Shown here: piece by piece, positions 7,773-33,776 of the stretch | Layout of the letters: each line of letters begins with the position of its first letter | Position numbering within the stretch: the first letter of the stretch is position 1 | Assembly: GCA_004376575.1 (NCBI GenBank) | Contig: SOJN01000148.1 | Coordinates: 2-64,001, forward strand | Source of the DNA: a candidate division TA06 bacterium | GTDB lineage: Bacteria > Hydrothermota > DG-26 > E44-bin18 | DNA: 64,000 bases | Direction: 5' to 3' | Notes under the pieces: generated by a model | The model's database searches: none | Told to the model about the DNA's origin: nothing | The model's input: only the letters and a program-made list of their open reading frames with translations | Made by a program: the position numbers and the translations under genes

Positions 7773-8912
7773 ATGTCACTTGATTGGCTGCCCAGGGACG
7801 ATGAAGTGAAGAACCACGCGCTTTGGGGCAAAGAACATTTCGGCACAGAGCCCCCCTGCGTGATTTATGAAAAGAGACCTGTCATAGATTCAGATGGAAA
7901 TGAAGTCAAAGGGCTCTATTCTGCATGGGTCATTCTGAACAATCCTAAACAGTACAACTCATACACTACTGAAATGGTCAAGGGAGTGATAGCAGGTTTC
8001 CAAAACGCCTCACTCGATAGGAGCGTTGTCTCTGTGGTCTTCACCGCCGTGGGTGATAGAGCATTCTGCACTGGCGGAAACACCAAAGAGTATGCTGAAT
8101 ACTACAGCAAACGGCCCAATGAATACGGGGAGTACATGGACCTGTTCAACCAGATGGTGGATGCTATCCTCATGTGCAAGAAGCCTACCATATGCCGGGT
8201 GAATGGGATGAGAATTGCTGGTGGCCAGGAGATAGGAATGGCCTGTGACATAGCCATTGCGGCTGACACTGCAACCTTCGGGCAGGCGGGACCGAGACAT
8301 GGGTCTGCCCCTGACGGGGGCTCAAGCGACTTCCTTCCGTGGTACTTGAGCATAGAAGACGCACTGTGGAACTGCGTATCATGCGAGATATGGAGTGCGT
8401 ACAAGATGAAAAGGCTTGGTCTCATTACCAGAGTGGTCCCTGTCATAAAGGACGGAGAAAAGTGGATAAGAAACCCGATGGTAATCACAGGCAAATACGT
8501 GGAGGACGGGGAAATCGTTTATGGAGAGCTGGTTAAAGGAGAAGAACTGAAGAAAGCAAAGGAATTCTTGAAGGGAGGCAAGAAAGATTTTGGACTCCTG
8601 GACGCGGCAGTTAATGAAGTCATCTGGAAATTTGTCAACCTGATGCCTGGATGTCTGATAAAATCAATAGATGGTGTCCGAATGAAGAAGAAATTCTTCT
8701 GGGACGTGGCCAAACTGGCAAACAGACACTGGCTTGCAGCAAACATGTCCACGGAAGCGTTCCTTGGTTTCCACGCGTTCAATACTAAGAAGATAACCGG
8801 CAAAGACGTGATTGACTTTGTGAAGTATCGTCAGTTGATTGCCGAGGGACACGTGTTCGATGATTCACTTGCTGAGGAGGTATTCGGGAAGCCGAAACCA
8901 GAAGCTGAGTGA
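7773..8912 (+). CDS. bamA: 6-oxocyclohex-1-ene-1-carbonyl-CoA hydrolase (ring-cleaving crotonase-family hydrolase, BamA/Oah)
   Basis: 379 aa, crotonase fold. Contains QYNSYTT and GQEIGMA, the peptide motifs encoded by the bamA functional-marker primer sites. Length matches BamA/Oah (~380 aa). Confidence 0.85.
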   Translation: MSLDWLPRDDEVKNHALWGKEHFGTEPPCVIYEKRPVIDSDGNEVKGLYSAWVILNNPKQYNSYTTEMVKGVIAGFQNASLDRSVVSVVFTAVGDRAFCTGGNTKEYAEYYSKRPNEYGEYMDLFNQMVDAILMCKKPTICRVNGMRIAGGQEIGMACDIAIAADTATFGQAGPRHGSAPDGGSSDFLPWYLSIEDALWNCVSCEIWSAYKMKRLGLITRVVPVIKDGEKWIRNPMVITGKYVEDGEIVYGELVKGEELKKAKEFLKGGKKDFGLLDAAVNEVIWKFVNLMPGCLIKSIDGVRMKKKFFWDVAKLANRHWLAANMSTEAFLGFHAFNTKKITGKDVIDFVKYRQLIAEGHVFDDSLAEEVFGKPKPEAE

Positions 8913-16362: not shown

Positions 16363-16577
16363 GGTCCTCACGAATCGAACAAAATGACCTTCTGACAAGT
16401 ATATACGAATTCTCTGCCGTATGACAACTCGAAAAGACATCCCCGATCCTGCATTTGCAGGGGAAAAACCTTTTAGATTGGATTGGAGCAGGCTGTTCAG
16501 CTTCTTGAACTGCGACGTAATCACATGAGATCAGTGTGACTGCCATGGCTGAGAACCGAACCGCTACCTTTTCTCTT

Positions 16578-16672
16578 CCCGCCCGGGCCGTTTAACGGCC
16601 GCTCGTTTCACGGACCCCCTTGCCAAGGGGGAAGCCTGCCTGGGTCGTTCCACGGGGTATTTTTCGTCCTGT
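16578..16672. repeat. Intergenic repeat family A copy (inverted orientation) plus the perfect hairpin CCCCCTTGCCAAGGGGG, then the GTATTTTTCGTCCTG motif
   Basis: cccgcccgggccgtttaacggccgctcgtttcacgg matches the reverse complement of the element at 77-117 and 21569-21608. GTATTTTTCGTCCTG is shared with 29849 and 30065. Confidence 0.6.
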
Positions 16673-19268: not shown

Positions 19269-20067
19269 TCTTTTTGCTCTCCTTTCTATGTGCAACCATG
19301 CGCACAAAGCCAATGTACTGACCACGATCAGCCTCCAGAACCTCCACATCGGATGGAAACTTCTTGGTGCCGGTGGCATGGATCGCCTTCTCATGCTGGA
19401 GCCAGACCTTCCAGCCATCTGGCATTGTGTCCACGAGCTCCACCTGCACCAAGCCAGTCTGCTCCCATAGCCGACGCCACCACGTTGTCGTGTGGAAGCT
19501 GAAGCACTCACTAGGGTCCCAGAAAACACCTCCACTCTTCTGTTTCTTCGTCAAGTATTCTGGTAGAGTGTCACTTTCAAAATCGCGCATCAATCCAGGG
19601 ACCATGATGCCGATCTGTCTCCCGGTCCTGACAAACCTGACGAAATACTTGAGATAGAGATCGTCAGTGCCATAGTAGTGGTAGGAATCGATGCAGACAA
19701 TCGCATCAAAGAACTCTTCAGCGTACGGGAGTGAGTGAGCTTCGGCATGGATTGGAAAGACCTGATCCTCAAGCCCCGCATCGCGAATCCGCTTCCAATT
19801 GTCTGCAGCCTCGATCCAGAGGTCGGTCGCCCATACCTGAACGCCAAACTCTCTCGCCAGAAAAATCGAACTCAGAGCTTTCCCGCAACCCATATCCAGC
19901 ACTCGCATGCCAGGCTTCAATTCCATGTCACTGCACAGCCACTCAGCAAGCCAGAGTGAACTTGGCCCCATTTGATTCTCCAACACCCATTCAGCATCGT
20001 ACTTCGAAGACATTGGGAACTGCTCAAGCTTCAGCATTGACGCCAGATCTCCTTTGCTTGGACTCAT
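19258..20067 (-). CDS. Class I SAM-dependent methyltransferase
   Basis: VLDMGCGKALSSIFLA motif. Start refined to the ATG at 20067 (AGGAGA RBS 8 nt upstream). Confidence 0.7.
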   Translation of the reverse strand: MSPSKGDLASMLKLEQFPMSSKYDAEWVLENQMGPSSLWLAEWLCSDMELKPGMRVLDMGCGKALSSIFLAREFGVQVWATDLWIEAADNWKRIRDAGLEDQVFPIHAEAHSLPYAEEFFDAIVCIDSYHYYGTDDLYLKYFVRFVRTGRQIGIMVPGLMRDFESDTLPEYLTKKQKSGGVFWDPSECFSFHTTTWWRRLWEQTGLVQVELVDTMPDGWKVWLQHEKAIHATGTKKFPSDVEVLEADRGQYIGFVRMVAHRKESKKNGQ

Positions 20068-20390
20068 TTTGTTTCTCTCCTTTCTGTAGATTGAAAGGGC
20101 CGCGAAATCCTTCTCCCGCGGCACATCAGACACTCCATCTGGTCAAATAAAAAACCGCGGACGTTCGTCACGCCTGCGGCTTGGGTATAAAAGAAACGGC
20201 CGCCTCTTCCGGGGCGGTCGCCAGCTTTCAATCAAGAAAACAAACTAACAGCCAATACTCCCGGGGCGTGACAACACCAGAATCTCTATTCTCGCATGCA
20301 TAAGTCACGCCTCCTTTCCAAACGGACCAACAGAACAACTACCGAAACGCCAAAAATATACACCCTCTCCTCAAAATGTCAAGCGGAAAC

Positions 20391-20450
20391 TCCTGGACTC
20401 GGGGGACAGCCCCCGTGTATCTCGCTTTGCGAGAGACGGGGCAGGCATGG
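20391..20450. repeat. Intergenic repeat family A (A2 sub-element: CCCCGTGTATCTCGCTTTGCGAGAGACGGGGCAGGCATGG)
   Basis: Imperfect palindrome. Near-identical copies at 21611-21650 and, reverse-complemented, at 30170-30219. Confidence 0.65.
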
Positions 20451-20637
20451 ATTTTTTGGACTTTTGACCATCTGTCTCATCGGGCCGGGGCGGGGTGTGG
20501 ATTTTCGATCTTCTATTTCCATCCGTCCTGGTTCTTAGCGGTTACCGCGAAAATGTAAAAGTGTCACGCCTGGCACCCGGGTTTGATGGGAAGTAAGGGG
20601 CGTATTGGGCGATAAGCTAAAAACTTGCAGTTTTCTC

Positions 20638-20666
20638 TTGACAGACTTCGCGAAGTAGCCTATATT
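20638..20666 (+). promoter_or_regulatory. Sigma70-like promoter TTGACA-17-TATATT; the spacer holds the perfect palindrome CTTCGCGAAG, and direct repeats TGGTTACCG x2 lie downstream
   Basis: Consensus hexamers with 17-nt spacing about 170 nt upstream of the regulator gene. The 10-bp palindrome overlaps the spacer. Tandem GGTTACCG repeats are at 20691-20715. Confidence 0.35.
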
Positions 20667-20837
20667 TTGTATGAGAGTTTATGGTTACCGATATTGGTTA
20701 CCGGGAAGCCCAAGACCCTGAAACCACGAGATTACACGAGATTAACACAGAGAAACCTTTATCCTAGGAACAAAACCAGAATATGAGAAATCTTGTAGTA
20801 ATCTGTGAAATCTGTGGTTTCAGATTGTGGGGTTGAG

Positions 20838-21506
20838 ATGACTGAAAACGACGTAGAGGCCAAGATATTTGGGGTTCTGCAGAAGTCTGCTGAGGGGTTG
20901 CAGAGTGAGGAGATCGCCGCCAATCTGGGTCTCACCCGCCACACTGTTGCCAAATACCTTGAGGTCCTCAGAGCCAAGAACAAAATCCACTACAGAAAGG
21001 TGGGCAGAACGAAGCTCTGGAAGACCCTCTTCGCAGACATCCACATCCGCTCGCTTGAAAAAGGCGACGTAGACACGATACTTGAAATAATGTCGAACAT
21101 CGGTCGTCCGACAGCAGGAGAAGAAGAAGAATCTCTATCATACTTAAGAGAGACGGTGGAGCGTCACATAGAGAGAAATGAACCCTTGATGAACCTTGGC
21201 GCAGAGCTTGACAAGAGACTGGTCGGCTTCGTCATGGGTGAGATAAGGGCGTGGGAATTCGGCCAAAGGGAGAAGACGGGCTGGATAAAGGTTCTTGGTG
21301 TTGATCCAGACTATCAGGGAATGGGAGCCGGGAGGAAGCTTGGAGAGGCACTCCTTTCCAACTTCAAAGCGAGCGGAGTAGCCAGGGTCAGGACGCTGGT
21401 TAACTGGTACGAAGGTGACCTTCTCTCCTACTTCAGGACTCTCGGTTTCAACACGCTGAACATCATACCGCTTGAAACAAAGGTCACCACGAGGGATCGA
21501 ATATGA
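20838..21506 (+). CDS. Winged-helix (MarR/ArsR-like) DNA-binding domain fused to a GNAT acetyltransferase domain; candidate regulator of the adjacent bzd operon
   Basis: N-terminal ...QSEEIAANLGLTRHTVAKYLEVLRAKNKIHYRKVGRTKLWK resembles a wHTH. C-terminal GNAT-like region. Start chosen at MTENDV (20838). Confidence 0.55.
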   Translation: MTENDVEAKIFGVLQKSAEGLQSEEIAANLGLTRHTVAKYLEVLRAKNKIHYRKVGRTKLWKTLFADIHIRSLEKGDVDTILEIMSNIGRPTAGEEEESLSYLRETVERHIERNEPLMNLGAELDKRLVGFVMGEIRAWEFGQREKTGWIKVLGVDPDYQGMGAGRKLGEALLSNFKASGVARVRTLVNWYEGDLLSYFRTLGFNTLNIIPLETKVTTRDRI

Positions 21507-21561
21507 AGCAGATTCTTCGGCCTTCGACAAACTCCCCTCGATGCTCTCCCCTCGACTTCTC

Positions 21562-21650
21562 TCGGGAGACCGTGAAACGGCCGCTCGTAAAACGAGCCGG
21601 GCGGGCAGGCCCCGTGTATCTTGCTTCGCGAGAAACGGGGCAGGCAGGCC
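21562..21650. repeat. Intergenic repeat family A, full tandem copy (A1 CTCGGGAGACCGTGAAACGGCCGCTCGTAAAACGAGCCGGGCGGGCAGG + A2 CCCCGTGTATCTTGCTTCGCGAGAAACGGGGCAGGCAGG)
   Basis: A1 is nearly identical to 70-117. A2 matches 20412-20450 and the reverse complement of 30170-30219. Both halves are imperfect palindromes. Confidence 0.7.
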
Positions 21651-21694
21651 TCAGAATGACACGGATGAAGTAGGACAGAACCTCTGACAGGAGA

Positions 21695-22825
21695 ATGAAG
21701 ATGAAGGAGATGTTCAAGGAGTTTTACGAAGCCAGGCATGAGTACGCCAAGGAATGGAAGAAGAAGAACCGCGGCAAAGTAATGGGTTATTTCTGTACAT
21801 ACGTGCCAGAGGAGATGCTTTACGCCGCGGGAGTTCTTCCGGTCCGAATTCTGGGAAGCCATGAACCCCAGGACCTGACCGAACCTCACATCTTTGGGAT
21901 GTTCTGCCCGTTTTGCAGAGACTGTCTGGCTCAGGGTTTGAAGGGAAGGTTCGACTACCTGGATGGTATAATGATAGCTCAGTCCTGCCTGCACGTGAGG
22001 CAGGCCTACACTTCGTGGGACCTTCACATACCTACAGAGTACTCATACTATCTCTCCACACCTCATCACGTTCAGTCTCCTCGGGCTATCCCCTACCTGG
22101 CAGGTGAACTGGAGGATTTCAAAAAGTCACTCGAAGGGTGGCTGGGCAAGAAGATAACTGATGCGAACCTTGACAAAGGTATCCAAATCATGAACACAAA
22201 CAGATCGCTCCTGCGAGAACTATACGAGCTCAGAAAACAGGAAGCGCCGCCTCTCACAGGGCTCGATGCGATGTATGCTGTTGTTTCAGGCCAGATGATA
22301 GACAAGGTTGAACACAACCGCATACTTGAGGACACATTGAAGAGTCTAAAGAACAAACAGCCTGAAAGGCCAACAGGAAGCAGACTGATGCTAATAGGCA
22401 GCGAAGATGACGATACAGGCTTTATAGAGATGGTGGAATCCCTGGGAGCCACTTTTGTAATAGATGACCACTGCACTGGTTCGCGCTATATCTGGGAAGA
22501 CGTAAAACCTAACGGAGACAGATTGACTGCAATAGCAGAAAGATACGTCAAACGAGTACCATGCCCCACAAAAGATTGGCCGCTGAGAAACCGCCTTCCT
22601 CACATTCTCAAACTTGCAAAGGAGTACAAGGTGGAAGGTGCAGTCATCGCTCAACAGAAGTTCTGTGACCCGCACGAACTGGACATACCCGCAATCAAAA
22701 AGCTGCTCGAAGAGAATAGCATACCCACCTTATTCCTTGAGTTGGATGTGACTGTTCCCATTGGACAGTTCAAAGTCCGGGTTGAAGCATTCCTGGAGAT
22801 GCTGAGCGAAGAAGATCTATTCTGA
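21695..22825 (+). CDS. bzdN: Benzoyl-CoA reductase (class I, Bzd-type) gamma subunit, BcrC/BadD/BzdN-like (HgdA/B family)
   Basis: 376 aa, HgdAB/BcrBC family (…[21 protein letters not shown]…). First gene of the 4-gene set gamma-beta-delta-alpha followed by ferredoxin, as in the bzdNOPQM order. Confidence 0.7.
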
Positions 22826-22835
22826 GGAGGATAAG

Positions 22836-24143
22836 ATGGCGAAGTATGAAACTGAACGGCTGAAGTGCTGGAACAAGGCGAAAGAGTTGAGAAAGAATTT
22901 CTACGAAGATTACGCGAAAGCCCATGAAAAGGGTGGCATAAGATGGGCTGGAGGTGCGTGGTCCATAGGTTCGATTCCGGCCGGACTGGGAAGAGACGTC
23001 TACCCGATCACTTCTGAGCCGTACGCTGCCAGCATTGCATTTGACAGACCCTTCTCAGAAGAATGCCTCGCGGCGATCGAAAAAGAAGGGTATGCCAGGG
23101 ACCTGTGTTCATACATGCGCAACTACTGGGGAAGTGTTTTGTTGAACAAGTACGCCTTTGGCGGAGAGTTTCCCACTCCTGACTTCATCTGGCAGGATCA
23201 TATATGCTGCAGCCACGCAAAATGGTACCAGGTGGTGAAGGACATAGAAGAAAAGGACATACCCTACTTCTGCCTTGATGTGGCTGTTGGTCCTTACAGC
23301 GAGTTGAATGAGAACAAATTGAACTATGTCGTGGGCCAACTGCACGACGCCATCGAATGGATGGAGAAGCTGACAGGCCGGAACTACCAAGACGAACTGC
23401 TCATAGAGGCGGTCAATGATGAGTGCAGATCAACATCTGTCTGGGCTGAGGTGTGCGCGCTGAACAAGGCAATACCAGCACCTCTCGATGAGAAATCCAT
23501 GTATTCGCTTTATGTCCTGGGCACTCTCAAAAAGCACTCCAAGGATATTGCAGACTTCTACGAGGAGTTGAGAGATGAGGTGAAGGACAGAGTTGACCGG
23601 GGTATTGCCGCTGTTGGAAATGAACGGTGCCGGGTGATGACTGACACTCAGCCTCCCTGGGGATTCTTGAAGATATTTAGATATATGGAAAAGTTCGGTT
23701 GCATCTCTGTCGGTTCTCTCTACACCTTTGGCCTCATCGGAATGTGGGAAGACAAACCTGACGGGACGTGGGGGCCCAAGACGACCCCGCAGCAAAAGGG
23801 GATTGAAATCAAGGACAGGGATGAGGCCTTGAGAATCATTGCTGAGTGGAATCTGTCTAAGCCAGAGTGGCAGCACTTCTATCATCCAAAGCACAAGACC
23901 GACATGATGGTGAGAATCGCCAAAGAGTGGAAGCTGGACGGGGTGATGCTTCACTACAACAGGGGATGCGAGGGATTGAGCATTGGGATAGCAGAGAACA
24001 GACTTGGCATACAGGAAGCTGGATTCCCTGTCATGACCTTCGAAGGAAACATGGGAGATGAAAGAGAGTTCGATGAGGCGAAAACCGTGGGTAGAATCGA
24101 CACATTCATGGAAAGTCTCGGATTCAGCAAGGATGAAGAGTAG
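22836..24143 (+). CDS. bzdO: Benzoyl-CoA reductase beta subunit, BcrB/BadE/BzdO-like
   Basis: 435 aa, HgdAB/BcrBC family (…[19 protein letters not shown]…[13 protein letters not shown]…). Size matches BcrB/BzdO. Confidence 0.7.
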
Positions 24144-24149
24144 GGGGAT

Positions 24150-24929
24150 ATGATGGTGACAGCAGGAATAGACGTAGGCGCGAAGAGCGTGAAAGTGGTA
24201 TTACTTGAGAGTGGCAAGGTGACGTCCAGGAGTCTCAAAACAATTGGCCTCAACACTGAGGCGGCCATTAACGAAGCCTTTGAAAGCGCCCTCTCCAACA
24301 ACGGAATCAAACGTGAAGAGATCTCAAAGATCATAGCCACAGGCGCGGGCAGAAAAGAGGTGAAGTTTGCCGACGGAGAATTGACAGAAGTCGGTGCCTC
24401 GGCAAAAGGTGCCCACCATCTCCTCGACTCGGCCCGCACTGTGATAGACATTGGAGCTGAGGAAGGTCGGGCCATAAAGGTAAACGAAAAAGGTAAGGTG
24501 GCTGACTTCGCCATAAACGAGAAATGTGCCGCGGGCGCAGGCGCCTTCACTGAAGCGATGTCAAGAGCTCTGGAGGTTGACCTGGAAGACTTCGGAAAGC
24601 TCTCGCTGAAGTCCCAGAAGGCCATTCCCATGAACGCACAGTGTGCTGTGTTTGCAGAAAGCGAAGTCGTTTCTCTTATCCACGCCAAGACCCGCAAAGA
24701 GGACATAGCCCGGGCAGTCCACGATGCGATAGCAGACAGGATAGTTTCTATGGCAAGACGTGTCGGTATCGCAAAGGACGTTATCGTGGTAGGAGGAGTT
24801 GCAAGAAACATTGGTTTCATAGATTCACTGAAACGCACTCTCGAGACTGACGTGGTTGTGCCAGAATACCCTGAGTACGCAGCAGCACTTGGAACCGCCC
24901 TACATGCGGCAGAAACCGGAGGTCAATAA
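24150..24929 (+). CDS. bzdP: Benzoyl-CoA reductase ATPase subunit (delta, BcrD/BadG/BzdP-like; activase-family)
   Basis: 259 aa. GIDVGAKSVK N-terminus and KCAAGAGAF motif. ASKHA ATPase of the HgdC family. Confidence 0.75.
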   Translation: MMVTAGIDVGAKSVKVVLLESGKVTSRSLKTIGLNTEAAINEAFESALSNNGIKREEISKIIATGAGRKEVKFADGELTEVGASAKGAHHLLDSARTVIDIGAEEGRAIKVNEKGKVADFAINEKCAAGAGAFTEAMSRALEVDLEDFGKLSLKSQKAIPMNAQCAVFAESEVVSLIHAKTRKEDIARAVHDAIADRIVSMARRVGIAKDVIVVGGVARNIGFIDSLKRTLETDVVVPEYPEYAAALGTALHAAETGGQ

Positions 24930-25810
24930 TGTCGCAGGATTTCTGGAGATGGACTGAATACAGAAAGACTATGCCTGATGTTGACTGGAAGAAGGCTCAA
25001 ATCCTGACGGCAGGTGTCGATGTGGGATCGGTTAGCTCTCAGGCGGTCGTCATGGCGGACGGGAAGCTCTTCGCGTACAGCAACATGAGGACAGGTTCAG
25101 ACAGTCCGGAGTCTGCTCAAAAAGCGATGGACTGGGCCCTTGAAGAGACAGGACTCACCCTGGATAAAATTCAGTTCACTGTGGGTACAGGATACGGCAG
25201 GGTGAACGTCCCCTTCGCCAATAGGGCGATTACTGAGATTGCATGCCACGCAAGGGGAGCAAACTATTTGTACGGCTCTTCAGTCCGGACTGTTCTCGAC
25301 ATGGGCGGTCAGGACTGCAAGGCGATTCGCTGCGATGAGAGAGGCAAGGTGACAAACTTTCTCATGAACGACAAGTGTGCCGCGGGAACCGGCCGCGGCA
25401 TGGAAGTTTTTGCTGAGCTCCTGCAGGTACCCATAACCGAGATCGGTCAGATGTCTCTGGACATAGACGAAGAACCAGAGCCGGTATCATCGACATGCGT
25501 CGTATTTGCTAAATCTGAGGCGACGGGTCTGCTGAGGGAAGGATGGCCCAAGAACAAGGTGATAGCAGCTTACTGTTCAGCAATGGCTCACCGGATTGTC
25601 ACGCTCCTGGAGAGAATCGGGATTGAAAAGGATTTCGCCATTACCGGTGGCATCGCAAAAAATCCAGGTGTGGTGACACGGTTAAACAAGGAACTGGGCA
25701 TCGAACCACTCAAGACCGAATATGACACGCAAACCGCAGGGGCCATCGGCGGCGCCCTTTTTGGATACGCACTGGTGAAGAAAGGCAAAGCAAAGGCAGG
25801 TGCGAGTTGA
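24929..25810 (+). CDS. bzdQ: Benzoyl-CoA reductase ATPase subunit (alpha, BcrA/BadF/BzdQ-like)
   Basis: 293 aa. GVDVGSVSSQ, IACHARG, KCAAGTGRG motifs. The second, non-identical activase-type ATPase implies a heterodimeric ATPase module as in BCR, not a homodimeric dehydratase activator. Confidence 0.75.
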   Translation: MSQDFWRWTEYRKTMPDVDWKKAQILTAGVDVGSVSSQAVVMADGKLFAYSNMRTGSDSPESAQKAMDWALEETGLTLDKIQFTVGTGYGRVNVPFANRAITEIACHARGANYLYGSSVRTVLDMGGQDCKAIRCDERGKVTNFLMNDKCAAGTGRGMEVFAELLQVPITEIGQMSLDIDEEPEPVSSTCVVFAKSEATGLLREGWPKNKVIAAYCSAMAHRIVTLLERIGIEKDFAITGGIAKNPGVVTRLNKELGIEPLKTEYDTQTAGAIGGALFGYALVKKGKAKAGAS

Positions 25811-26094
25811 TAGCAAACTACGGGTACATGGACGGCAGCGGCCAGTACTTCATAAAGATAGACTCAGACAAGTGCGATGGATGTGGAGACTGTGTGACCG
25901 CGTGCCCGGCTGGGGTCCTTGAGGTGGGTGAAGATGAGAACGACCCATTCCGTGAGGAGCCTGTGGTCAAAGTCACTGAGGATCAACGAAAGAAGATCAA
26001 ATACTCATGCGGGCCCTGTAAGCCTGTTGCCAACAGACCTCCTCTCCCCTGTATGGCAGCCTGCAAGCCCGGAGCGATCGAACACTCCTGGTAA
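25807..26094 (+). CDS. bzdM: 2x[4Fe-4S] ferredoxin, Alvin-like with extended second-cluster loop (BCR electron donor, BzdM/Fdx-like)
   Basis: 95 aa. Cluster 1 CDGCGDCVTACP. Cluster 2 CGPC-x10-C-x3-CKP. TTG start overlaps the bzdQ stop. Confidence 0.75.
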   Translation: MIANYGYMDGSGQYFIKIDSDKCDGCGDCVTACPAGVLEVGEDENDPFREEPVVKVTEDQRKKIKYSCGPCKPVANRPPLPCMAACKPGAIEHSW

Positions 26095-26109: not shown

Positions 26110-28605
26110 TTGAAACTGGTCATAGACGGTCAGACCGTAGAGGCTAGACCGGAAAGCACAATTCTTGAAGCAGCTCTAGAGACACAGATATATATCCCTG
26201 CCATCTGTTACCATCCGGATTTGCCGACATTCTCAAAGGCTGAACCCTCGGGGGGGATATTTGGGGGAGTTGAGAAAATCACTTCAGAAGAAAATGCAAA
26301 ATACCAAGGGTGCGGTCTTTGCATTGTTGAGGTGGATTGGAGAAGTGGTCCAGTCCTTTCATGTGAAACAGAAGCAGAAGACGGTATGGTCATCAAAACA
26401 AATACAGAGAAGATCAAGGACAAGAGACAGGAAGCTCTGGCCAGGATACTCAAAGACCACCCAAGAGCCTGTCTCCTCTGCACTCAAAAAGAAGGTTGTT
26501 CCAGGGAACCCTGTTCAGAGGACGTCCCTATGGAAGAGAGGTGCTGTCCATTACTGGGCAAGTGTGAGCTCGAGAAGATCGCAGACTTCGTCGGAGTCCC
26601 CCAGAACCCGGGCAAGTATAAGTCTCTGAGAATCCCGTTGCTGGACGACGAGCCGTTGTTCAAGCGAGATTACAACCTCTGCATTGGCTGCATGAGGTGT
26701 GTCCGCGCATGCAAGGACCTGAGAGGCGTTGAAGCGCTTGGATATGTAATCAAAAACGGCACCACATACCTGGGCACCATCAATGGATCGAAGCTCAAGG
26801 ACGCCGGGTGCAGGTTCTGCGGAGCCTGCGTTGAAGTGTGTCCCACAGGTGCACTGACCGACATCAAGCCTTTCACCCTTTCCGAGAAAGAGAAAGTTCT
26901 TGTCCCCTGCAGGGACGCTTGTCCGGCAGGAATAGACGTACCGGCGTATGTCCGGGCAATAGGCAGAGGCGAAACGGACAGAGCCCTCTCGATTATTTAC
27001 GAAAGCGCTCCTCTTCCAGGAATTCTGGGCATGGTTTGCCACCATCCATGCGAAGATGTCTGCAGGAGGAAAGAGATAGAAGAACCCATCTCCATATGCG
27101 GCATCAAACGATTTGCTGCAGAAAATGGAAAGCTGACGCACGCCTCTCCCCTGCTTCCCTCTACCGGCAAAAAGGTCGCGGTGATAGGTTCTGGTCCAGC
27201 AGGGCTCAGTACTGCCCATTTCCTGAAGCTGAAAGGCCATCAAGTTACTGTTTTCGAAAGAGAAGAGAAACCAGGAGGAATCCTAAGATACGGCATTCCC
27301 GCGTACAGGCTGCCTGATGCAGTCCTGGACAGCGAGATATCAACTGTGCTGGACGGAATTGAATTGAAGACTGAAGCTGCTCTTGGTCAAGATTTCCAGC
27401 TGAAGGACCTGGCAGACGAGGGATTTGACTGCGTGTTTCTCTGCACCGGAGCCGGAGAGAGTAAGAAACTTGAGATACCGGGCTCAGACAGTGAAGGTGT
27501 ATATTGGGGCCTTGACTTCTTGAAGGAGATTAACAAGGGTGACAAACCAGCTCTCGGCGAGAACGTCGCGGTCATAGGCGGAGGAAATGTCGCCTTTGAC
27601 GTTGCGCTGTGCTGCCTCAGGCTGGGAGTTCGACAGGTGACCGTCGTCTGCCTGGAGTGTAAATCTGAGATGCCCGCTTTCAATAAAGAGATAGATACTG
27701 CCAAAGAGGAAGCGGTCAGAATAATGAACTCCTGGGGACCAAAAGAGATAGAGTGCGCGGATGGCAAAGTCAAAGGAGTCTTCCTGAAGAAATGCACAGA
27801 GGTGTTCGACAAGAAAGGGAACTTCTCTCCTCAATACGACGAATCAGTCGTGGAACACATCGATGCTGACAATGTGATTCTTTCCATAGGCCAGGAGCCA
27901 GATGTGGATCTCATCTCTCTCCCTGGCATGCCAGAACACGATTCTTCAAGACTCCTTAGAGCAGAAGATACGAGAACAAACATCCCTACAGTGTTCGCTG
28001 GCGGGGATGCCACAAGAGGTCCTTCATCGGTAATTGAGGCTGTTGCAGACGGTAGGAAGGCCGCCGACGAAATCGACAGATTCCTGGGAGGCAGGGGCCC
28101 CGTTCGTACTTCCGGGCCTCAGCCCGCGAACCCTGAGATTGGTCGGGACGAACAGTTCTGTGAGCGTCTCAGAGTGGCAATGCCATGCGCTGATCCGTAC
28201 GAGAGAGGAAAATCGTTCACCCCCATAGAACTTGGATATGGTGAGAAAGAGGCAGGCATCGAAGCAAACCGTTGCCTTCAATGCGACCTGAGACTACAGA
28301 TTACTGAAGCTACTCTTCCTCCTGAGAAGTGGATACTTCTTGATCGTGAAGCTTTGAATGAAATCCCTGAAAAGGAAGGCGTGTACCAGCTGGCAGGCGA
28401 GAAGAAGATGGTGACAAAGATAGCCGGAACTCAGAATCTTCTACAATCACTCACGGCCGAACTGGACAGTGAAAATGGGAAGTACTTCTGGTTTGAGGAG
28501 GACCCGATGTACACGAAACGCGAAAGTGAGCTCATACAACAACATCTCCAGAAGTACGGTGAACTGCCAGGAGCAGGTGAAGAAGACCTGGATGACCTCT
28601 TCTAG
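26110..28605 (+). CDS. Multi-cluster iron-sulfur flavoprotein: NuoG-type 2Fe-2S/His-Cys3 4Fe-4S N-terminus + 2x[4Fe-4S] ferredoxin domain + GltD/SudA-type NAD(P)H:FAD oxidoreductase + C-terminal extension; candidate NAD(P)H:ferredoxin oxidoreductase for BCR
   Basis: 831 aa. HPRACLLCTQKEGC (H-x3-C-x2-C-x5-C). CIGCMRCVRAC and CRFCGACVEVCP. GltD-like C-x3-CP...VCHHPCEDVCRR. Dinucleotide folds KKVAVIGSGPAGL and VAVIGGGNVAFD. C-terminal ~170 aa includes an extra CLQC pair. Confidence 0.7.
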   Translation: MKLVIDGQTVEARPESTILEAALETQIYIPAICYHPDLPTFSKAEPSGGIFGGVEKITSEENAKYQGCGLCIVEVDWRSGPVLSCETEAEDGMVIKTNTEKIKDKRQEALARILKDHPRACLLCTQKEGCSREPCSEDVPMEERCCPLLGKCELEKIADFVGVPQNPGKYKSLRIPLLDDEPLFKRDYNLCIGCMRCVRACKDLRGVEALGYVIKNGTTYLGTINGSKLKDAGCRFCGACVEVCPTGALTDIKPFTLSEKEKVLVPCRDACPAGIDVPAYVRAIGRGETDRALSIIYESAPLPGILGMVCHHPCEDVCRRKEIEEPISICGIKRFAAENGKLTHASPLLPSTGKKVAVIGSGPAGLSTAHFLKLKGHQVTVFEREEKPGGILRYGIPAYRLPDAVLDSEISTVLDGIELKTEAALGQDFQLKDLADEGFDCVFLCTGAGESKKLEIPGSDSEGVYWGLDFLKEINKGDKPALGENVAVIGGGNVAFDVALCCLRLGVRQVTVVCLECKSEMPAFNKEIDTAKEEAVRIMNSWGPKEIECADGKVKGVFLKKCTEVFDKKGNFSPQYDESVVEHIDADNVILSIGQEPDVDLISLPGMPEHDSSRLLRAEDTRTNIPTVFAGGDATRGPSSVIEAVADGRKAADEIDRFLGGRGPVRTSGPQPANPEIGRDEQFCERLRVAMPCADPYERGKSFTPIELGYGEKEAGIEANRCLQCDLRLQITEATLPPEKWILLDREALNEIPEKEGVYQLAGEKKMVTKIAGTQNLLQSLTAELDSENGKYFWFEEDPMYTKRESELIQQHLQKYGELPGAGEEDLDDLF

Positions 28606-28615
28606 GTGAACCGTT

Positions 28616-29770
28616 ATGCATCGTATTGAGAAACTGCAAAAGACCCTGGCCGACCACAGTCTAGTTGCGGCGTTTCTTCTTTACCACCGTGACGTTTACT
28701 ACTATGCAGGTACTGCAAGACCAGCGTCTCTTGTTGTGACTCCGGATGATGCAGTCTTGTTCGTCAGAAGGGGAGTTGATTGGCTCGGCGACGAACCGAA
28801 ACTGAGTGATGTCCGTGAGGGAGGCTTAGGTTCAATCCTTGATTGGCTGAAGGCCAAAGGTATACAGACGGGTAACGCAGGAATCGAGATGGATATCGTA
28901 CCTGCAGACATGTACGTGAAGCTGAAGATGCTCCTCCCCGGTTTGGAGTTTGTGGATGTTTCCACGTTCATAATCGAGCAAAGGCTCATTAAAGACAAGG
29001 ATGAGATAAAATCAATAAGGGGAGCATGCCGAATGGTCGAACAATCACACAAACACCTTCCCGATATCCTGAAAGAAGGGATTACTGAGCTTGAACTCTC
29101 AGCAGAGCTCGAATCGGTAGCTCGCAGGCACGGCCACGAAACCTTCGCAGTACTCAGGAAGAGGTTGGAGACGGAGATGGGCTACGCACTCATTCTCTCT
29201 GGTGAAAGCACCAGAGCGATCGGTGGTTATGGACAGGTCGTAACAGGAAAAGGGTTGAGTCCTGCTTTTCCGTATGGCCCTTCGCTTAGAAAGGTGAAAC
29301 GAGGGGATGTGGTCGTGTTTGACATCGCAGGCCTGAGCCAGGGATACCACTCAGATCTGGCAAGAACCTACTGTCTGGGGAAAGCGTCTGATGAGATGCT
29401 GGAAGCCCATGCAGCACTTGTTGCCATCCAGTCGGCAATGCTGGACGCTGCAAAGCCCGGGGTACCGGCAAATCAGATATACAAAACTGCAATCAAGAAA
29501 GCAGAAGCAATGGGTTGGGCCGATTACTTTCAGGGACACGGTAAAGAGAAAGGGACTTTTGTCGGGCATGGACTGGGTCTTGAGATAGACGAGCCGCCGC
29601 TTCTGAGCCCCAAAGATGGAACTGTGATCGAAGAAAACATGACATTCACCACAGAGCTGTTCATCGTGCATCCTGAGTTTGGCGAGGTTAAGCTGGAGGA
29701 CACTCTGCTCATGACGAAAGACGGGCCGGAACTTTTGACGACATTGGAACGGACAATAACTGAAATATGA
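28616..29770 (+). CDS. M24-family metallopeptidase (Xaa-Pro aminopeptidase/creatinase-like)
   Basis: 384 aa. Pita-bread fold motifs HGLGLEIDEPP, ...NMTFTTE.... Start is 11 nt after the upstream stop, so it is likely co-transcribed with the bzd operon. Confidence 0.8.
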   Translation: MHRIEKLQKTLADHSLVAAFLLYHRDVYYYAGTARPASLVVTPDDAVLFVRRGVDWLGDEPKLSDVREGGLGSILDWLKAKGIQTGNAGIEMDIVPADMYVKLKMLLPGLEFVDVSTFIIEQRLIKDKDEIKSIRGACRMVEQSHKHLPDILKEGITELELSAELESVARRHGHETFAVLRKRLETEMGYALILSGESTRAIGGYGQVVTGKGLSPAFPYGPSLRKVKRGDVVVFDIAGLSQGYHSDLARTYCLGKASDEMLEAHAALVAIQSAMLDAAKPGVPANQIYKTAIKKAEAMGWADYFQGHGKEKGTFVGHGLGLEIDEPPLLSPKDGTVIEENMTFTTELFIVHPEFGEVKLEDTLLMTKDGPELLTTLERTITEI

Positions 29771-29848: not shown

Positions 29849-30219
29849 GTATTTTTCGTCCTGAGCGGGAGCGAAGGATCCCCTGAGCCCGAGATTGCTT
29901 CGCTATCGCTCGCAATGACAGTACCTCTATTCCGTGTAGCCCAGGAAGTTCAGAGTTTGGAAGCTGACGACTGACAACTGATAGCTTCTGCTGTGTCGTA
30001 CAGCCTACAGCGAGCCAAATAGGTCCAGCTGAAAAAGACCCACACTGTCGATAGACAGGGTAAGGTATTTTTCATCCTGAGGGAACGCCGAAGGACCTCC
30101 TGAATGCTTCTATGTCACTGGATGAGACATATTTGGTCCTTCATCGGCGTGAGCCGATGGAGGAGAAGCCATGCCTGCCGCGTTTCTCGTGAAGCGAGAT
30201 ACACGGGGCCTGCCCCGCC
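29849..30219. repeat. Repeat-dense intergenic spacer: two GTATTTTTC(G/A)TCCTGAG...GAAGGA elements (29849-29925, 30065-30110), a GATTGCTTCGCTATCGCTCGCAATGAC hairpin, GTACAGCCT(A/G)CA...AATAGG motifs, and an inverted family-A2 copy (30170-30219)
   Basis: Direct sequence comparison. 30170-30219 is the reverse complement of the A2 elements at 20412-20450 and 21611-21650. 29891-29921 matches 14631-14655. Confidence 0.65.
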
Positions 30220-30465: not shown

Positions 30466-31995
30466 ATGAGAAAACTGCCAGAAAACGAATATGTAGCCTT
30501 GACGACTCTCAGCCGACTGGAAAGGCCAGCACCTTTTGACAGCCTGGTTGCTCAGTCTGGTATGGACCAATCCAAACTAATGGCCGCTGCCATATCCCTC
30601 AAGGAGCAGGACCTTATAGTAATCCAGGAGGAGGCAGGAACTCTCATTTCCCTTGCTGACAATGGGAAGATATATGCTGAGCAACTCTTCCCGGAGAGGA
30701 GAGCCCTGAAAGCCATCCAGGATGCCGGAGGAAAGGTGAAGATCTCTACTCTCGCCCAACTCATAGATATACCGGATCTCGATTCCAGAAGAATCGTAAA
30801 GTGGCTTTCCCAGAAGGGCTGGTGTGCAAAAGAAGAGGACAACCTCGTAGTAACGGACAAGGGAAAGCAAGCAGCCAAAAAAAAGGGCCAGGACGAAATG
30901 CTTGTTGATGTGCTTTCCCAGAAAGGCACTGCTGACATCAAGTCCTTGAAGGAGAATGGCATTGATGTTGAGGCCGCCCAGCGACTTCTCAAAGGAAGAA
31001 CCCGAATCGTTAAGGTAAGATCGAAGAAGCTGAGACTTGTGAACCTCACAGAGAAAGGCAAGAAACTAGTATCGGAAGGGATCGAACCGGAAAAGCAAGC
31101 TACCACACTTACCTATGAGATGCTGGCAACAGGCAAGTGGCGCGAAGTCAGTTTGAAAAGCTATGACGTGAGTCTCCCAGGTGCTGTCACCTACCCTGGC
31201 AAAAGCCATCCTTTGAGAAGAATCATAGACGAGGCCCGCCAGGTCTTCCTGGAGATGGGTTTCACCGAGATAGTCTCGCCTTACGTGGACTCTTCCTTCT
31301 GGGTATTTGACGCACTCTTCCAACCCCAGGATCACCCCGCAAGGGAGATGCAGGACACGTTTTACATGTCCGCTCCCAGGCGATCGAAGCTTCCTCCGAA
31401 GAAGTTTGTCGAACCGGTTAAAGCCACTCACCAGAACGGCGGAAAAACTGGGAGCACAGGCTGGGGGTACAAGTGGGACATAGAAAAAGCAAGGAGAAAC
31501 GTACTCAGGACACACACCACAGCAACGACCATCAGATACCTGGCAGCACATCCTGAGCCGCCCCAGAAGGTTTTCAACATCGGCAGGAATTTCAGAAGAG
31601 AGAAGATCACTTTCAAGCATCTCATAGAGTTCTACCAGGTGGATGGAATAGTGATCGACGAAAAGGCGAGTCTGTCCACTTTGCTTGGGACCCTGGCTGA
31701 ATTCTATAAGAAAATCGGATTCCCAAAAGTCGTGTTCAGGCCGTCGTTCTTCCCTTACACAGAACCGAGCGTTGAGGCCTTTGCCTGGCTTGAAGCCAAA
31801 GATGCCTGGATCGAACTTGGAGGAGCTGGCATCTTCAGAGCCGAGGTTACCCGACCTCTTAACTGCCACGTCCCCGTTCTGGCCTGGGGTCTGAGTATTG
31901 AAAGAATCGCCATGATGAGATTTGGCCTGAGTGACATAAGGAAATTGTACTGGTCCGACATAGACTGGTTGAGGGAGGCGGAGCTATGCCGGTAA
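30466..31995 (+). CDS. pheS: Phenylalanine--tRNA ligase alpha subunit, archaeal/eukaryal type
   Basis: 509 aa (bacterial PheS is ~340). Signature HPL...MGFTEI...FWVFDALFQPQDHPARE...DTFY of archaeal/eukaryotic cytosolic PheRS-alpha. Class II motifs FRREKITF and GAGIFRAEV. Confidence 0.85.
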   Translation: MRKLPENEYVALTTLSRLERPAPFDSLVAQSGMDQSKLMAAAISLKEQDLIVIQEEAGTLISLADNGKIYAEQLFPERRALKAIQDAGGKVKISTLAQLIDIPDLDSRRIVKWLSQKGWCAKEEDNLVVTDKGKQAAKKKGQDEMLVDVLSQKGTADIKSLKENGIDVEAAQRLLKGRTRIVKVRSKKLRLVNLTEKGKKLVSEGIEPEKQATTLTYEMLATGKWREVSLKSYDVSLPGAVTYPGKSHPLRRIIDEARQVFLEMGFTEIVSPYVDSSFWVFDALFQPQDHPAREMQDTFYMSAPRRSKLPPKKFVEPVKATHQNGGKTGSTGWGYKWDIEKARRNVLRTHTTATTIRYLAAHPEPPQKVFNIGRNFRREKITFKHLIEFYQVDGIVIDEKASLSTLLGTLAEFYKKIGFPKVVFRPSFFPYTEPSVEAFAWLEAKDAWIELGGAGIFRAEVTRPLNCHVPVLAWGLSIERIAMMRFGLSDIRKLYWSDIDWLREAELCR

Positions 31996-33776
31996 TGGGA
32001 ATTCCGCTTGACGCCCTCTACAGGCTCGTTAAGAAAAAGATCGAGAAGAAAGAGCTGTTCGCTCTCCTCACCAGTCTGGGCTGTGATGTGGAGGGCTACT
32101 TCGAGGTCGAGCGATTCAAATGTACAAGATGCGGTGAGATAGTCGAACTCACATCCCAGGAAGACTCGCTAGGTGAATGCTCTTCCTGCGGTGTGGAGTT
32201 TGAGCCGGGGAAAACCATGCTCAGCATAGGTATGAGCGAAGTTGTCAGAATGGAGCTTCTACCAGCGAGGCCTGACATGTTCGACGTGGGCGGCCTGGCC
32301 AGAGCCATACGGGGATACCTGGGTCTTGAGGTTGGCATGCCGCGTTATCCGCTGCAGCCGTCGAACATGCTTGTCAAGGTGGCCAAATCAGTGAAGGGCG
32401 TAAGGCCCTGCATCGCCTGTGCTGTCGCCAGGGGAATGAAGCTCGACTACGAAACGATAAAGGCAGTTATGAAGATGCAGGAGAATCTCCACTGGGCCCT
32501 TGGCAGAGATAGAAGAAAAGCATCAATCGGAGTCTATGATCTCTCATCCCTGAGACCCAATTTTGTATACACAGCCTATGGCAAGAAAGAGATGAAGTTT
32601 GTGCCACTCGGGGGAATGCCCGGAGGCAGCACCGAGCCGACAACTCTGGAGAATATTCTTGAGCGCCATCCTAAGGGGATGGCATACAAACATCTCCTGG
32701 AAGACTATCAAGTCTACCCCATTCTCATTGACTCGGCAGACCAGGTTCTGTCCATGCCGCCCATTATCAACAGCGAGGAGACTAGAGCGGGAATTGAAAC
32801 AGAAGACCTGTTCGTAGATGTGACCGGTCACGACAGGACAAGCGTGGAAAGGACCCTCAATGTTTTTGTGTGTTCGCTCGCGGAATTGGGCGCCAGGATT
32901 GAAACCGTCAGAATCGCCGATACTACCGAAGAGCTGCGCACCCCCAATCTTGAATCAAGAGAGTCTATCCTGGTTTCCGAGCACGCCTCCTCTTTGATAG
33001 GAATCGATATTCCTCCTGACGATTGTGTCAGGCTTCTGAAGAAGATGCGATTTGATGCTTTCACGTCAGAAGAAAAGATACATGTGAGCATACCTCCCTT
33101 CAGGACTGACATCATGCACGAGTACGATCTGATAGAAGATATTGCTATTGCCTATGGCTATCACAACATAAAGCCTGCTCTCATTCCAACCATGACAATC
33201 GGCGCACAAAGGCCCCTGGAGAGAACTTCCGCACGGCTCAGAAACTGCATGCTGGGCCTCGGATTCTTGGAAGTGGTCACGACTCTGCTTTCTAATCCCC
33301 AGAAGAACTACGGTCTTTTGCAGAGAGAAGATGACAACAGGGCACCGAAGATAGAGAACCCCTCAACAGTTGAACATACAATTCTGAGGACCCACCTCAT
33401 CTCAGGTCTTCTGGAGATGTTCAAGATCAACAGAACCCGCAAGATGCCTCAGAAGACGTTCGAGCTTGGTGATGTTTCTCTCATAGAAGAAAAAGGAGAG
33501 ACCGGAACGGTTGATAAGAGAATTCTCGCCGGTGCAATCATGGATCCAAAGACTGGATTTTCAGAGATAAAATCGTGTGTCGCGGCTGTTATGAGAGAAA
33601 CAGGCAGAGATTTTGACCTGCGCCCTGAAAATGATCCTTCCTTTATCAAGGCCAGGTGTGCGGGAATATACCTGAAAGATTCGAAGATAGGAATATTGGG
33701 GGAGATTCACCCACAGGTTCTTGAGAACTTCGAAATAGTACAACCTGTCTCCCTTTTCCACATGGCAGCTGAGTAG
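31986..33776 (+). CDS. pheT: Phenylalanine--tRNA ligase beta subunit, archaeal/eukaryal type (with a Cys4 zinc-ribbon insert)
   Basis: 596 aa (bacterial PheT is ~800). Overlaps the pheS stop. B3/B4-like and B5 regions. CTRCGEIVEL...CSSCG zinc ribbon near the N-terminus. Confidence 0.8.
   Translation: MPVMGIPLDALYRLVKKKIEKKELFALLTSLGCDVEGYFEVERFKCTRCGEIVELTSQEDSLGECSSCGVEFEPGKTMLSIGMSEVVRMELLPARPDMFDVGGLARAIRGYLGLEVGMPRYPLQPSNMLVKVAKSVKGVRPCIACAVARGMKLDYETIKAVMKMQENLHWALGRDRRKASIGVYDLSSLRPNFVYTAYGKKEMKFVPLGGMPGGSTEPTTLENILERHPKGMAYKHLLEDYQVYPILIDSADQVLSMPPIINSEETRAGIETEDLFVDVTGHDRTSVERTLNVFVCSLAELGARIETVRIADTTEELRTPNLESRESILVSEHASSLIGIDIPPDDCVRLLKKMRFDAFTSEEKIHVSIPPFRTDIMHEYDLIEDIAIAYGYHNIKPALIPTMTIGAQRPLERTSARLRNCMLGLGFLEVVTTLLSNPQKNYGLLQREDDNRAPKIENPSTVEHTILRTHLISGLLEMFKINRTRKMPQKTFELGDVSLIEEKGETGTVDKRILAGAIMDPKTGFSEIKSCVAAVMRETGRDFDLRPENDPSFIKARCAGIYLKDSKIGILGEIHPQVLENFEIVQPVSLFHMAAE

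Follow-up and report, generated by a model that had tools for sequence, protein, structure and literature searches.

How is the reduction of benzoyl-coenzyme A (benzoyl-CoA) switched on and off in anaerobes that have never been brought into culture? To our knowledge, what has been learnt of the control of ring reduction comes solely from a small number of cultured Proteobacteria, with the regulators BzdR, BadR/BadM/BadL, AadR and MbdR, and we know of no regulation described for the uncultured sediment and subsurface lineages (Aminicenantes/Acidobacteriota, Elusimicrobia) that hold much of the environmental reductase gene pool. Geobacter has the ring-reduction regulators BamVW and BgeR. The question is raised anew by the stretch of DNA analysed here (the window), 64,000 nucleotides (nt) of contig SOJN01000148.1 from a candidate division TA06 bacterium, in which a gene at 20838-21506 (+ strand) stands directly upstream of a class I benzoyl-CoA reductase (bzdNOPQ) operon and encodes a protein that joins a winged helix-turn-helix (HTH) domain to an acetyltransferase-like GNAT domain. 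In the reading that we favour, with a probability of roughly 0.6, the reductase operon has this gene as its first cistron, whose product is an autoregulated, one-component repressor that senses an acyl-CoA through its GNAT domain.

Architecture of the proposed regulator

The open reading frame (ORF) lies on the + strand and ends at 21506, with possible starts at 20805 (GTG), 20814 (a further alternative GTG) and 20838 (ATG). An alignment with 34 homologues, in which the ATG at 20838 is the start, gives a product of 222 aa, while the upstream GTG codons have also been taken by gene callers, e.g., for the 230-aa JGI protein P0001. A fusion of a winged helix to a GNAT domain had been proposed in a first-pass annotation made from the letters alone, and both parts of it were recovered here. 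The winged helix-turn-helix domain comprises residues 1-66 (20838-21035) with the recognition helix LTRHTVAKYLEVL, and the GNAT domain comprises residues 69-222, which together with the stop codon occupy 21042-21506 and include the CoA-pyrophosphate motif Q160-G-x-G-x-G-R-K-L. Pfam PF00583 (Acetyltransf_1) matched ORF residues 114-198 with 44.9 bits against a cutoff of 20.7 (E 1.6e-11), and two other Pfam GNAT models exceeded their gathering scores, i.e., PF13508 (30.9 against 27) and PF13673 (27.7 against 23.6). The Pfam HTH and winged-helix matches at ORF residues 15-70 were all sub-threshold (GerE, 23.3 against 23.5; TBPIP, 21.7 against 22.8; HTH_11, 20.2 against 25), and the homologues carry precomputed matches to HTH_11, HTH_24 or IclR.

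Given the alignment of 34 sequences, AlphaFold returned a model (mean predicted local distance difference test score, pLDDT, 75.6) of a winged helix with helices at residues 3-15, 23-30 and 34-46 and strands at 50-55 and 58-63 (pLDDT 83-95), followed by a GNAT fold. In the recognition helix, T33, R34, H35, T36, K39, Y40 and L41 (TRHT-x-x-KYL) are invariant in the 34 homologues. Foldseek matched the GNAT fold to Ard1, Naa50 and Naa30 in the PDB with E values of 7e-8 to 1e-6 and target-normalised template modelling (TM) scores of 0.63-0.71, while sequence-profile and Foldseek searches of the PDB returned generic single-domain GNATs only and no chain with both domains (query-normalised TM at most 0.51). 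A tblastn search of plasmids yielded one unrelated GNAT and nothing else. The idea of a GNAT toxin from a toxin-antitoxin pair was dropped, since no antitoxin partner is encoded beside the gene and its place as first cistron in catabolic operons is conserved.

Linkage to both classes of benzoyl-CoA reductase

The regulator belongs to a family of more than 560 proteins (90% clusters), 50-60% identical across lineages and every one of them from metagenomes, whose lineage labels are Aminicenantes/Acidobacteriota, Elusimicrobia, Krumholzibacteria, Fraserbacteria and Acetothermia. At E < 1e-30, no more than 31 sequences were found among 1.84 billion 50% representatives. We scanned one genome per species, which gave 50 loci (designated here by L numbers, as are the metagenome contigs), and typed their flanks by tblastn and family scans. 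The regulator gene is followed by the class I genes bzdNOPQ in 16 of the 50 loci and by the class II gene bamB, usually with bamC, bamD and bamE, in 26; three further loci have genes for a NifB-like radical SAM protein, two NifH-like and two NifD/K-like proteins, one has an NAD(P)/Fe-S oxidoreductase and a 2-oxoacid:ferredoxin oxidoreductase, and in the remaining four the contig is too short or the context is another one. A benzoyl-CoA reductase operon thus lies directly 3' of the regulator gene in 42 of the 49 loci having downstream sequence, and in 15 of the 16 bzd loci it is immediately next, usually after a gap of 0-3 nt.

In the window, the position of the gene in front of a bzd operon, as first annotated, was confirmed by the NCBIfam equivalog cutoffs for three of the gene products. 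All genes are on the + strand: bzdN (21695-22825; TIGR03190, 504 bits against 453.8), bzdO (22836-24143; TIGR03191, 698 bits against 448.6, and 679 bits to BzdO of PDB 8S02_A), a bzdP-like ATPase gene of the class I reductase set (24150-24929) and bzdQ (24929-25810; TIGR03192, 438 bits against 380.2). By Pfam the class I set has the domains expected of it, with two HGD-D subunits and two BcrAD ATPase subunits. Next come a ferredoxin gene (25807-26094) and one for an NAD(P)/Fe-S oxidoreductase of 831 aa (26110-28605), which are presumed to encode the electron donor system of the operon, and this gene order recurs in nearly all bzd-type loci whose downstream sequence extends that far. Further upstream in the window, an oah gene (7773-8912; TIGR03200, 578 bits), two CoA ligase genes, and thiolase and hydroxyacyl-CoA dehydrogenase genes make the benzoyl-CoA pathway context sound.

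The class II (BamB-type) linkage, which outnumbers the bzd linkage, had been missed by the first-pass annotation. The assignment of bamB by sequence is firm: the 653-aa protein of L031 matches Geobacter BamB (PDB 4Z3W_A, residues 1-652) over its full length with 1142 bits, and Fe-S, HdrD-like and HdrA-like neighbours are present in loci of this type. Furthermore, oah, had and dch are commonly found directly upstream in bam-type loci, with Oah and Had above the NCBIfam equivalog cutoffs. In a rough neighbour-joining tree of the regulators, bzd and bam contexts are interleaved at least three times, which indicates that the association tracks function rather than enzyme lineage. Two further, independent metagenome contigs of the window clade, whose upstream genes are unrelated, keep the link, with a regulator of 74% identity preceding bzd genes (L054) and one of 67% identity preceding bam genes (L055). 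The comparison of neighbouring genes in related genomes, which had been suggested as a check, with a lack of linkage to bzd genes as the refuting outcome, therefore upholds a new regulator linked to benzoyl-CoA reduction, with a conserved operator-like palindrome (below) as its second mark, and widens the link from bzd genes to benzoyl-CoA reduction in general.

Two side observations concern these loci. In L029 (180-3212), bzdQ, the regulator gene and bamB follow one another in series, and both reductase classes are thus adjacent. In four Aminicenantes loci (L005, L006, L043 and L050), an Hcr-like molybdenum hydroxylase, consisting of an FAD_binding_5 protein and a fused 955-aa Fer2-MoCoBD protein, is encoded directly upstream of the regulator gene.

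A conserved palindrome at the transcription start region

The functional unit extends from ~20538 to 21506 and runs on into the operon; the start formerly set at 20560 lies upstream of the promoter and was moved. The promoter itself, a sigma-70-type TTGACA-17-TATATT on the + strand (20638-20666, with the -35 box at 20638-20643 and the -10 box at 20661-20666; 11/12 match), is as first described, and in L051 and L053, whose regulators are 87-89% identical to that of the window, both hexamers are kept while the spacer varies. An archaeal origin of the window, hinted at by archaeal-type phenylalanyl-tRNA synthetase genes, would void this sigma-70 reading; it was dropped, since rsgA, pepC and the conserved TTGACA/TATAAT-type promoters speak for a bacterial source. 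Fourteen nt past the -10 box begins the candidate operator, ATGGTTACCGATATTGGTTACCGG (20681-20704), a 24-bp imperfect inverted repeat at about +8 to +31 from the predicted transcription start. Two copies of TGGTTACCG (20682-20690 and 20696-20704), reported before as tandem repeats, do exist and are perfectly kept in the relatives of 87-89% protein identity; they are the two halves of this one inverted repeat. Recurrence of 9-mers within 30 nt is only mildly unusual in the window (14 seen against 5±3 in shuffles), and the palindrome owes its significance to conservation across phyla, not to the rarity of such repeats.

This conservation became apparent on searching every locus for GGTWACC within 400 nt upstream of the regulator gene. 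The heptamer was found in nearly all loci, usually as a pair 13 nt apart, and the aligned pairs form a 24-bp palindrome with the consensus ATGGTAACCAATATTGGTTACCAT. Of 51 loci, 46 have it immediately 5' of the regulator gene (at most 7 mismatches), and the position matrix derived from them holds 33 bits; on this 46-locus matrix the window site scores 33.8 bits and is the sole site of at least 8 bits within the 64 kb. Normally there is one site per 10-20 kb locus, directly 5' of the regulator gene, the exception being L023 with a second site before oah-had-dch, upstream of a -35 box. Of 49 loci, 39 have a -35 box at a fixed distance of ~30 nt ahead of the palindrome, nearly always as a perfect TTGACA; the spacing from the end of the -10-like hexamer to the palindrome is 0-3 nt, or 13-14 nt in L001 and the window clade. 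The palindrome is thus positioned over the transcription start region, which is the classical placement for a repressor.

The first-pass annotation had sought the operator elsewhere, in the perfect 10-bp palindrome CTTCGCGAAG between the -35 and -10 boxes (20646-20655), and a related TCGCGA core does occur in the flanking repeat element. The short palindrome is indeed present, but the same position reads ATTGGTGAAG in L051 and L053, and the count of perfect 10-bp palindromes in the window does not exceed chance (48 observed, 59±7 in shuffles); the repeat with the similar core is a dispersed intergenic one, which is missing in L051 between the regulator gene and bzdN. We consequently rejected CTTCGCGAAG as an operator, a role that we regard as next to impossible, and judge it to be a chance feature outside the system.

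A second thought is that the 24-bp palindrome works as RNA. Transcription in most loci would begin in or just before it, 3-30 nt from the start codon, so that the mRNA would be headed by a potential hairpin, and a 5' stem-loop governing the stability or translation of the operon mRNA could take the place of a protein operator. We hold this to be very improbable. When the palindrome is read as RNA, its covariation (0.138) is no higher than in shuffles (0.124±0.013), three of its eleven pairs (6:19, 7:18 and 10:15) are broken in about one third of the sequences, and the second copy in L023, lying upstream of a -35 box, would go untranscribed. What is conserved is therefore the sequence rather than the pairing, as would be expected of a site to which a protein binds.

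Association of the palindrome with the winged helix

A reverse search, for metagenome contigs matching GGTAACCRATATYGGWWACC, returned 120 stretches. At 69 of the 120 sites a gene for the winged helix-GNAT protein begins 3-30 nt downstream, and at seven more the gene is cut by the contig end; following those 69 genes are bamB (34), bzd genes (12), the nitrogenase-like set (6), or sequence too short to tell. In five cases the site follows the end of oah-had-dch and precedes an SDR gene, so that the regulon probably reaches lower-pathway genes, and most of the remaining sites lie within coding sequence or could not be placed.

The same palindrome also precedes a 168-aa protein heading sufC-sufB-sufD in L090 (3747-7115) and L165. 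This paralogue shares the recognition helix RHTVAKYLE and 43% identity over residues 1-78 with the regulator, but its C-terminus is Cys-rich (C-x10-C-x2-C) and not a GNAT domain; it is a candidate Fe-S-sensing regulator. Additionally, in L038, L041 and L044 a variant helix and wing (RHTAAKYL...VRC) go together with the variant half-sites GGACACC, GGTGACC and GGTCACC. The palindrome is tied to the winged helix by this shared site and helix and by these co-occurring variants, and from the co-occurrence of gene and palindrome, the joint variation of helix and site, and the suf-linked paralogue we infer that the regulator binds DNA sequence-specifically.

Proposed mechanism and its signal

A dimer of the regulator would sit on 20681-20704 through its two winged helices, just past the -10 box, and would thereby shut off its own gene together with bzdNOPQ and the ferredoxin and oxidoreductase genes; it is the position of the operator that points to repression rather than activation. 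The C-terminal GNAT domain, with its retained CoA-binding motif, would act as the signal receiver, its ligand being most likely an acyl-CoA. When the ligand binds, or when the GNAT domain catalyses an acyl transfer, the affinity for DNA would fall and the operator would be released. Gene and palindrome precede the operon of one or the other reductase class in about 120 uncultured bacteria, and that the protein is a transcription factor acting through the 24-bp palindrome on the reductase operon seems to us quite probable. Benzoyl-CoA is the obvious candidate for the ligand, as the sole thing common to two unrelated reductase classes and in line with the pattern of BzdR, MbdR, PaaX and CouR, yet we put forward the binding of benzoyl-CoA by the GNAT domain only tentatively, at somewhat less than even odds.

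If this holds, one regulator-operator pair serving both ATP-dependent and tungsten-dependent reductases would provide a compact and testable switch model for the costliest step of anaerobic aromatic degradation, and the gene with its 24-bp site would be a metagenome marker for dearomatising operons, including unrecognised ones such as the nitrogenase-like set. The regulator would likewise be a candidate part for a benzoyl-CoA biosensor, and would clearly exemplify the recruitment of an enzyme fold (GNAT) for sensing within a transcription factor, in parallel to the shikimate-kinase origin of BzdR.

Several observations weigh against this reading. All organisms with the gene are uncultured, and the last 20 C-terminal residues of the AlphaFold model are of low confidence. 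About ten metagenome contigs have the near-identical palindrome GGTTACCGATATCGGTTACC 10 nt upstream of PadR-family genes, so that the motif is not exclusive to the winged helix of this family and another factor could occupy the site. In three genome and six metagenome loci the regulator stands before nitrogenase-like genes instead of a known reductase. The GNAT subfamily also occurs without an HTH domain, and the GNAT part therefore has a function of its own, possibly an enzymatic one as in BadL. Finally, L148 (2018-2476) bears a cut-down copy of the gene, preceded by the palindrome, among unrelated genes for a glycosyltransferase, a nitroreductase and Thi4; this copy, a 152-aa ORF with 49% identity to residues 2-153 and no Pfam match, is the one clear counter-example to the reductase link, and possibly a pseudogene.

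The PadR genes in question (L065, L069, L084, L118, L144, L160, L167 and L175, and also L070 and L131) adjoin genes for ADOP-type permeases or RND transporters. These Acidobacteria autoregulators resemble our system in that an almost identical palindrome, ATGGTTACCGATATCGGTTACCAT, precedes their own gene by ~10 nt, but they form an unrelated winged-helix family with no detectable similarity to the winged helix described here, control another regulon, and differ in the centre of the site (CGATATCG in PadR, CAATATTG here). Their existence lends something to the view that our protein is an acyltransferase only, which might, for instance, acetylate the reductase, some small compound or a CoA ligase, with the winged helix serving protein or substrate recognition and the palindrome being bound by a PadR-type or other regulator. 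Every source indeed annotates the protein as 'GNAT family N-acetyltransferase' or 'RimI-like', the Pfam HTH matches all stay under their gathering cutoffs, and the benzoate-CoA ligase of R. palustris is regulated by GNAT protein acetyltransferases. Nevertheless, the palindrome is kept with the gene irrespective of the genes that follow, is found with the same winged helix on a non-GNAT domain at the suf operon, and varies together with the helix, while recognition-helix residues invariant across phyla would be unusual for a mere adaptor. We consider such a plain acyltransferase improbable.

The nitrogenase-like operons that stand under the regulator and its operator are those of L003 (3221-9529), L009 and L013 (10001-16284) and of the metagenome contigs L109, L110, L117, L120, L122 and L132. 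Their NifB-, NifH- and NifDK-like proteins all fall below the nitrogenase and dark-operative protochlorophyllide oxidoreductase (DPOR) equivalog cutoffs. The set may represent an unrecognised reductase of aromatic CoA esters, or alternatively a MarBHDK-like enzyme; our search of the literature found no link between nitrogenase-like enzymes and benzoyl-CoA. Since these loci carry the same module, benzoyl-CoA is weakened as the necessary common denominator. The most far-reaching version of our scheme would make the GNAT domain a dedicated aryl-CoA receptor or a self-acylating switch, the family the first of transcription factors with a GNAT signal domain and the common regulator of both reductase classes in uncultured anaerobes, and, by extension, the nitrogenase-like operons a third, ATP-dependent kind of aromatic-CoA reductase; taken as a whole, we think it unlikely.

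The GNAT domain and its relatives without a winged helix

Across the 34 homologues, three glycines of motif A (YQGMGAGRKLG) never vary (G163, G165 and G169), and four more of its residues, Q160, G161, K167 and L168, reach 90% conservation or higher; the motif was aligned to what we take to be the corresponding RimI sequence, QRQGLGRALL. The domain is 40-43% identical to stand-alone GNATs of 145-153 aa and 29% identical to a 333-aa double GNAT, and fused, stand-alone and double forms have in common an unusual R-x-W-E-F-G loop and a C-terminal motif. Fused and stand-alone forms alike keep the Glu of the loop (E140) without exception. In their cluster names the stand-alone relatives bear 'GNAT family' or 'RimI-like' labels only. 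Such relatives without an HTH domain had gone unnoticed in the first-pass annotation.

We examined the contexts of five stand-alone or double GNATs (L056-L060). In L056 (5217-11849) a stand-alone GNAT gene is flanked by an enoyl-CoA hydratase gene on one side and a NifH/NifB/NifDK-like set on the other, and adjoins Hcr-like molybdenum hydroxylase genes, and in L060 the double GNAT adjoins a Bcr-type class I reductase with two hydratase genes. Two Asgard relatives (L058 and L059) occur among acyl-CoA genes, and the relative in L057 adjoins a tRNA-synthetase-like gene, with no acyl-CoA link. The GNAT subfamily thus recurs near reductive aromatic gene sets.

These contexts bear on the strongest competitor in kind, a device resembling BadM and BadL in fused form, in which the GNAT domain would be an active N-acetyltransferase and an acetylated aromatic amine (e.g., from aminobenzoate), not an acyl-CoA, would govern whether the attached winged helix, or another factor, binds DNA. 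A GNAT is already linked to the control of reductase genes in R. palustris, Magnetospirillum and Geobacter, by the pair of BadL (GNAT) and BadM (Rrf2): BadL is encoded beside BadM, and its acetamidobenzoate products free the badDEFGAB promoter of BadM (PMC6191541). GNATs of the same subfamily as ours (29-43% identity, with the WEFG loop) lie inside the reductase-type clusters L056 and L060, and the invariant E140 could serve as a catalytic base. On the other hand, the N-terminal domain is a 66-residue winged helix and not Rrf2, and a ligand made by the GNAT domain would diffuse off, which leaves no obvious gain from the fusion. Moreover, the invariant Leu187 and Phe199 of the regulator occupy the positions aligned with Glu103 and Tyr115 of RimI, which we take to be its catalytic residues. 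On balance, we find a fused acetyltransferase device of this sort unlikely, and retain a repressor with an acyl-CoA-sensing GNAT domain as the preferred reading.

Comparison with known regulators

Among the known regulators, of which the first-pass annotation rightly listed BzdR and BadR/BadM but left out the GNAT protein BadL, the nearest are BzdR and the BadM/BadL pair. BzdR of Azoarcus/Aromatoleum sp. CIB senses benzoyl-CoA (PMC3602430). Like the regulator proposed here, it is a one-component repressor of a bzd-type operon whose operator overlaps the promoter, and it combines a DNA-binding domain with an enzyme-fold-derived domain that binds a nucleotide- or CoA-type effector (PMC3602430). 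BzdR consists, however, of an XRE-type HTH and a shikimate-kinase-like domain, is separately transcribed and is confined to Betaproteobacteria, whereas the present protein consists of a winged helix and a GNAT domain and is encoded by the first cistron; its family occurs in Aminicenantes/Acidobacteriota, Elusimicrobia, Krumholzibacteria-like and other uncultured lineages and is linked to class II reductases too. Neither domain of BzdR was matched by the regulator in Pfam or NCBIfam, and no sequence relationship between the two proteins was detected there.

BadM and BadL of R. palustris, Magnetospirillum magneticum and Geobacter metallireducens are alike in that a winged-helix repressor and a GNAT act jointly on reductase expression, of class I in R. 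palustris and of class II in Geobacter (PMC6191541). They differ, as far as BadL can be compared by its description, in being two proteins, with an Rrf2-type BadM and with acetamidobenzoate effectors arising from BadL, while here a short non-Rrf2 winged helix is part of one polypeptide; the Rrf2 domain (~130 aa, with a dimerisation helix) gave no match in Pfam, and the DNA-binding part here has only ~66 residues. In BirA-type bifunctional repressors, too, an N-terminal HTH_11-like winged helix is joined to a catalytic domain, and operator binding depends on the acyl-adenylate or acyl ligand that this domain has bound; some JGI homologues of the present protein are annotated as 'GNAT.../biotin operon repressor'; enzyme fold, ligand and regulon are all different, and the likeness is confined to the winged helix. 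PaaX (GntR) and CouR/FerR (MarR) follow the same inducer logic as MbdR, and these three use other DNA- and ligand-binding folds, none of them with a GNAT domain. In MbdR (TetR), which senses 3-methylbenzoyl-CoA, the pathway-entry CoA thioester is the inducer of a promoter-bound repressor, as would be the case here (PMC4424350).

The fusion architecture is not unique in itself, for HTH-GNAT fusions exist in databases, e.g., the MarR-GNAT proteins of actinobacteria. Our literature search found nothing on HTH-GNAT regulators, or on GNATs together with benzoyl-CoA reductase, that matched the family, the BadL paper aside (PMC6191541). What is new, then, is the regulator family, its operator, and its consistent place before both classes of benzoyl-CoA reductase in uncultured phyla.

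Leader, intergenic insertion and divergent promoter

Upstream of the promoter lies a single box, GCGGTTACCGC (20538-20548), an 11-bp palindrome kept in L051, L052 and L053, and single boxes are also found ~280 nt upstream of the main site in L014, L017 and L018; an auxiliary half-operator is a possible role for it. Between the operator and the start codon, the leader (20705-20837, + strand) has 133 nt and contains CACGAGATTA twice in tandem at 20725-20744. In most relatives the leader measures 3-30 nt; it is expanded in the window clade (L051 and L053) and reaches ~950 nt in L054. An Rfam scan of 20000-21800 gave two chance-level matches and none for the leader.

The regulator gene and bzdN are separated by an insertion of 188 nt (21507-21694, + strand) with a hairpin at 21596-21652, similar to repetitive extragenic palindromic (REP) elements, that folds at -32.4 kcal/mol (z = -2.7). 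The insertion is present in L053 and lacking in the syntenic L051, where the regulator stop codon is 3 nt before the bzdN start. Other copies of the repeat occur in the window at 69-118, 16575-16619 (- strand), 20401-20447 and 30172-30215 (- strand), as well as in L051 (18860-18895), and the insertion thus belongs to a family of short dispersed intergenic repeats with a G+C-rich stable hairpin, similar to REP elements or miniature inverted-repeat transposable elements (MITEs). For this reason, and because the copy on the bzdN side is missing in L051, the 47-nt hairpin repeat (20401-20447 and 21600-21646) was rejected as an operator or terminator, and the fragment 21650-21700, which the first-pass annotation had proposed for a DNA-binding assay, lost its standing, as it falls within the insertion. 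A promoter scan of 21507-21694 found no promoter-like site, so that co-transcription of the regulator and bzd genes is the simplest reading; the hairpin could modulate it.

On the - strand, a second sigma-70-type promoter with an 11/12 match (TTGACA-16-TATATT, 20355-20382) faces methyltransferase and rsgA genes and is kept in L051. Together with the + strand promoter it makes up a divergent control region of 700 nt.

Other genes in the window

The oxidoreductase gene is followed by a gene for a creatinase/prolidase-type M24 'peptidase' (28616-29770 in the window; 17568-18731 in L051), conserved in both as the last of the series and an odd member for a reductase operon. At 245-2259, a second HGD-D-type enzyme of 414 aa, nearest to the HadB and BcrB models but below all cutoffs, is encoded with its own BcrAD-type ATPase and is another putative radical dehydratase or reductase; genes for an ADP-forming acyl-CoA synthetase and then for two AMP-forming CoA ligases come after it. 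At 30466-33776, both the alpha and beta subunits of phenylalanyl-tRNA synthetase are of archaeal type (PRK04172, 558 bits; pheT_arch, 533 bits), and the rest of the window looks bacterial (rsgA, pepC, sigma-70-type promoters).

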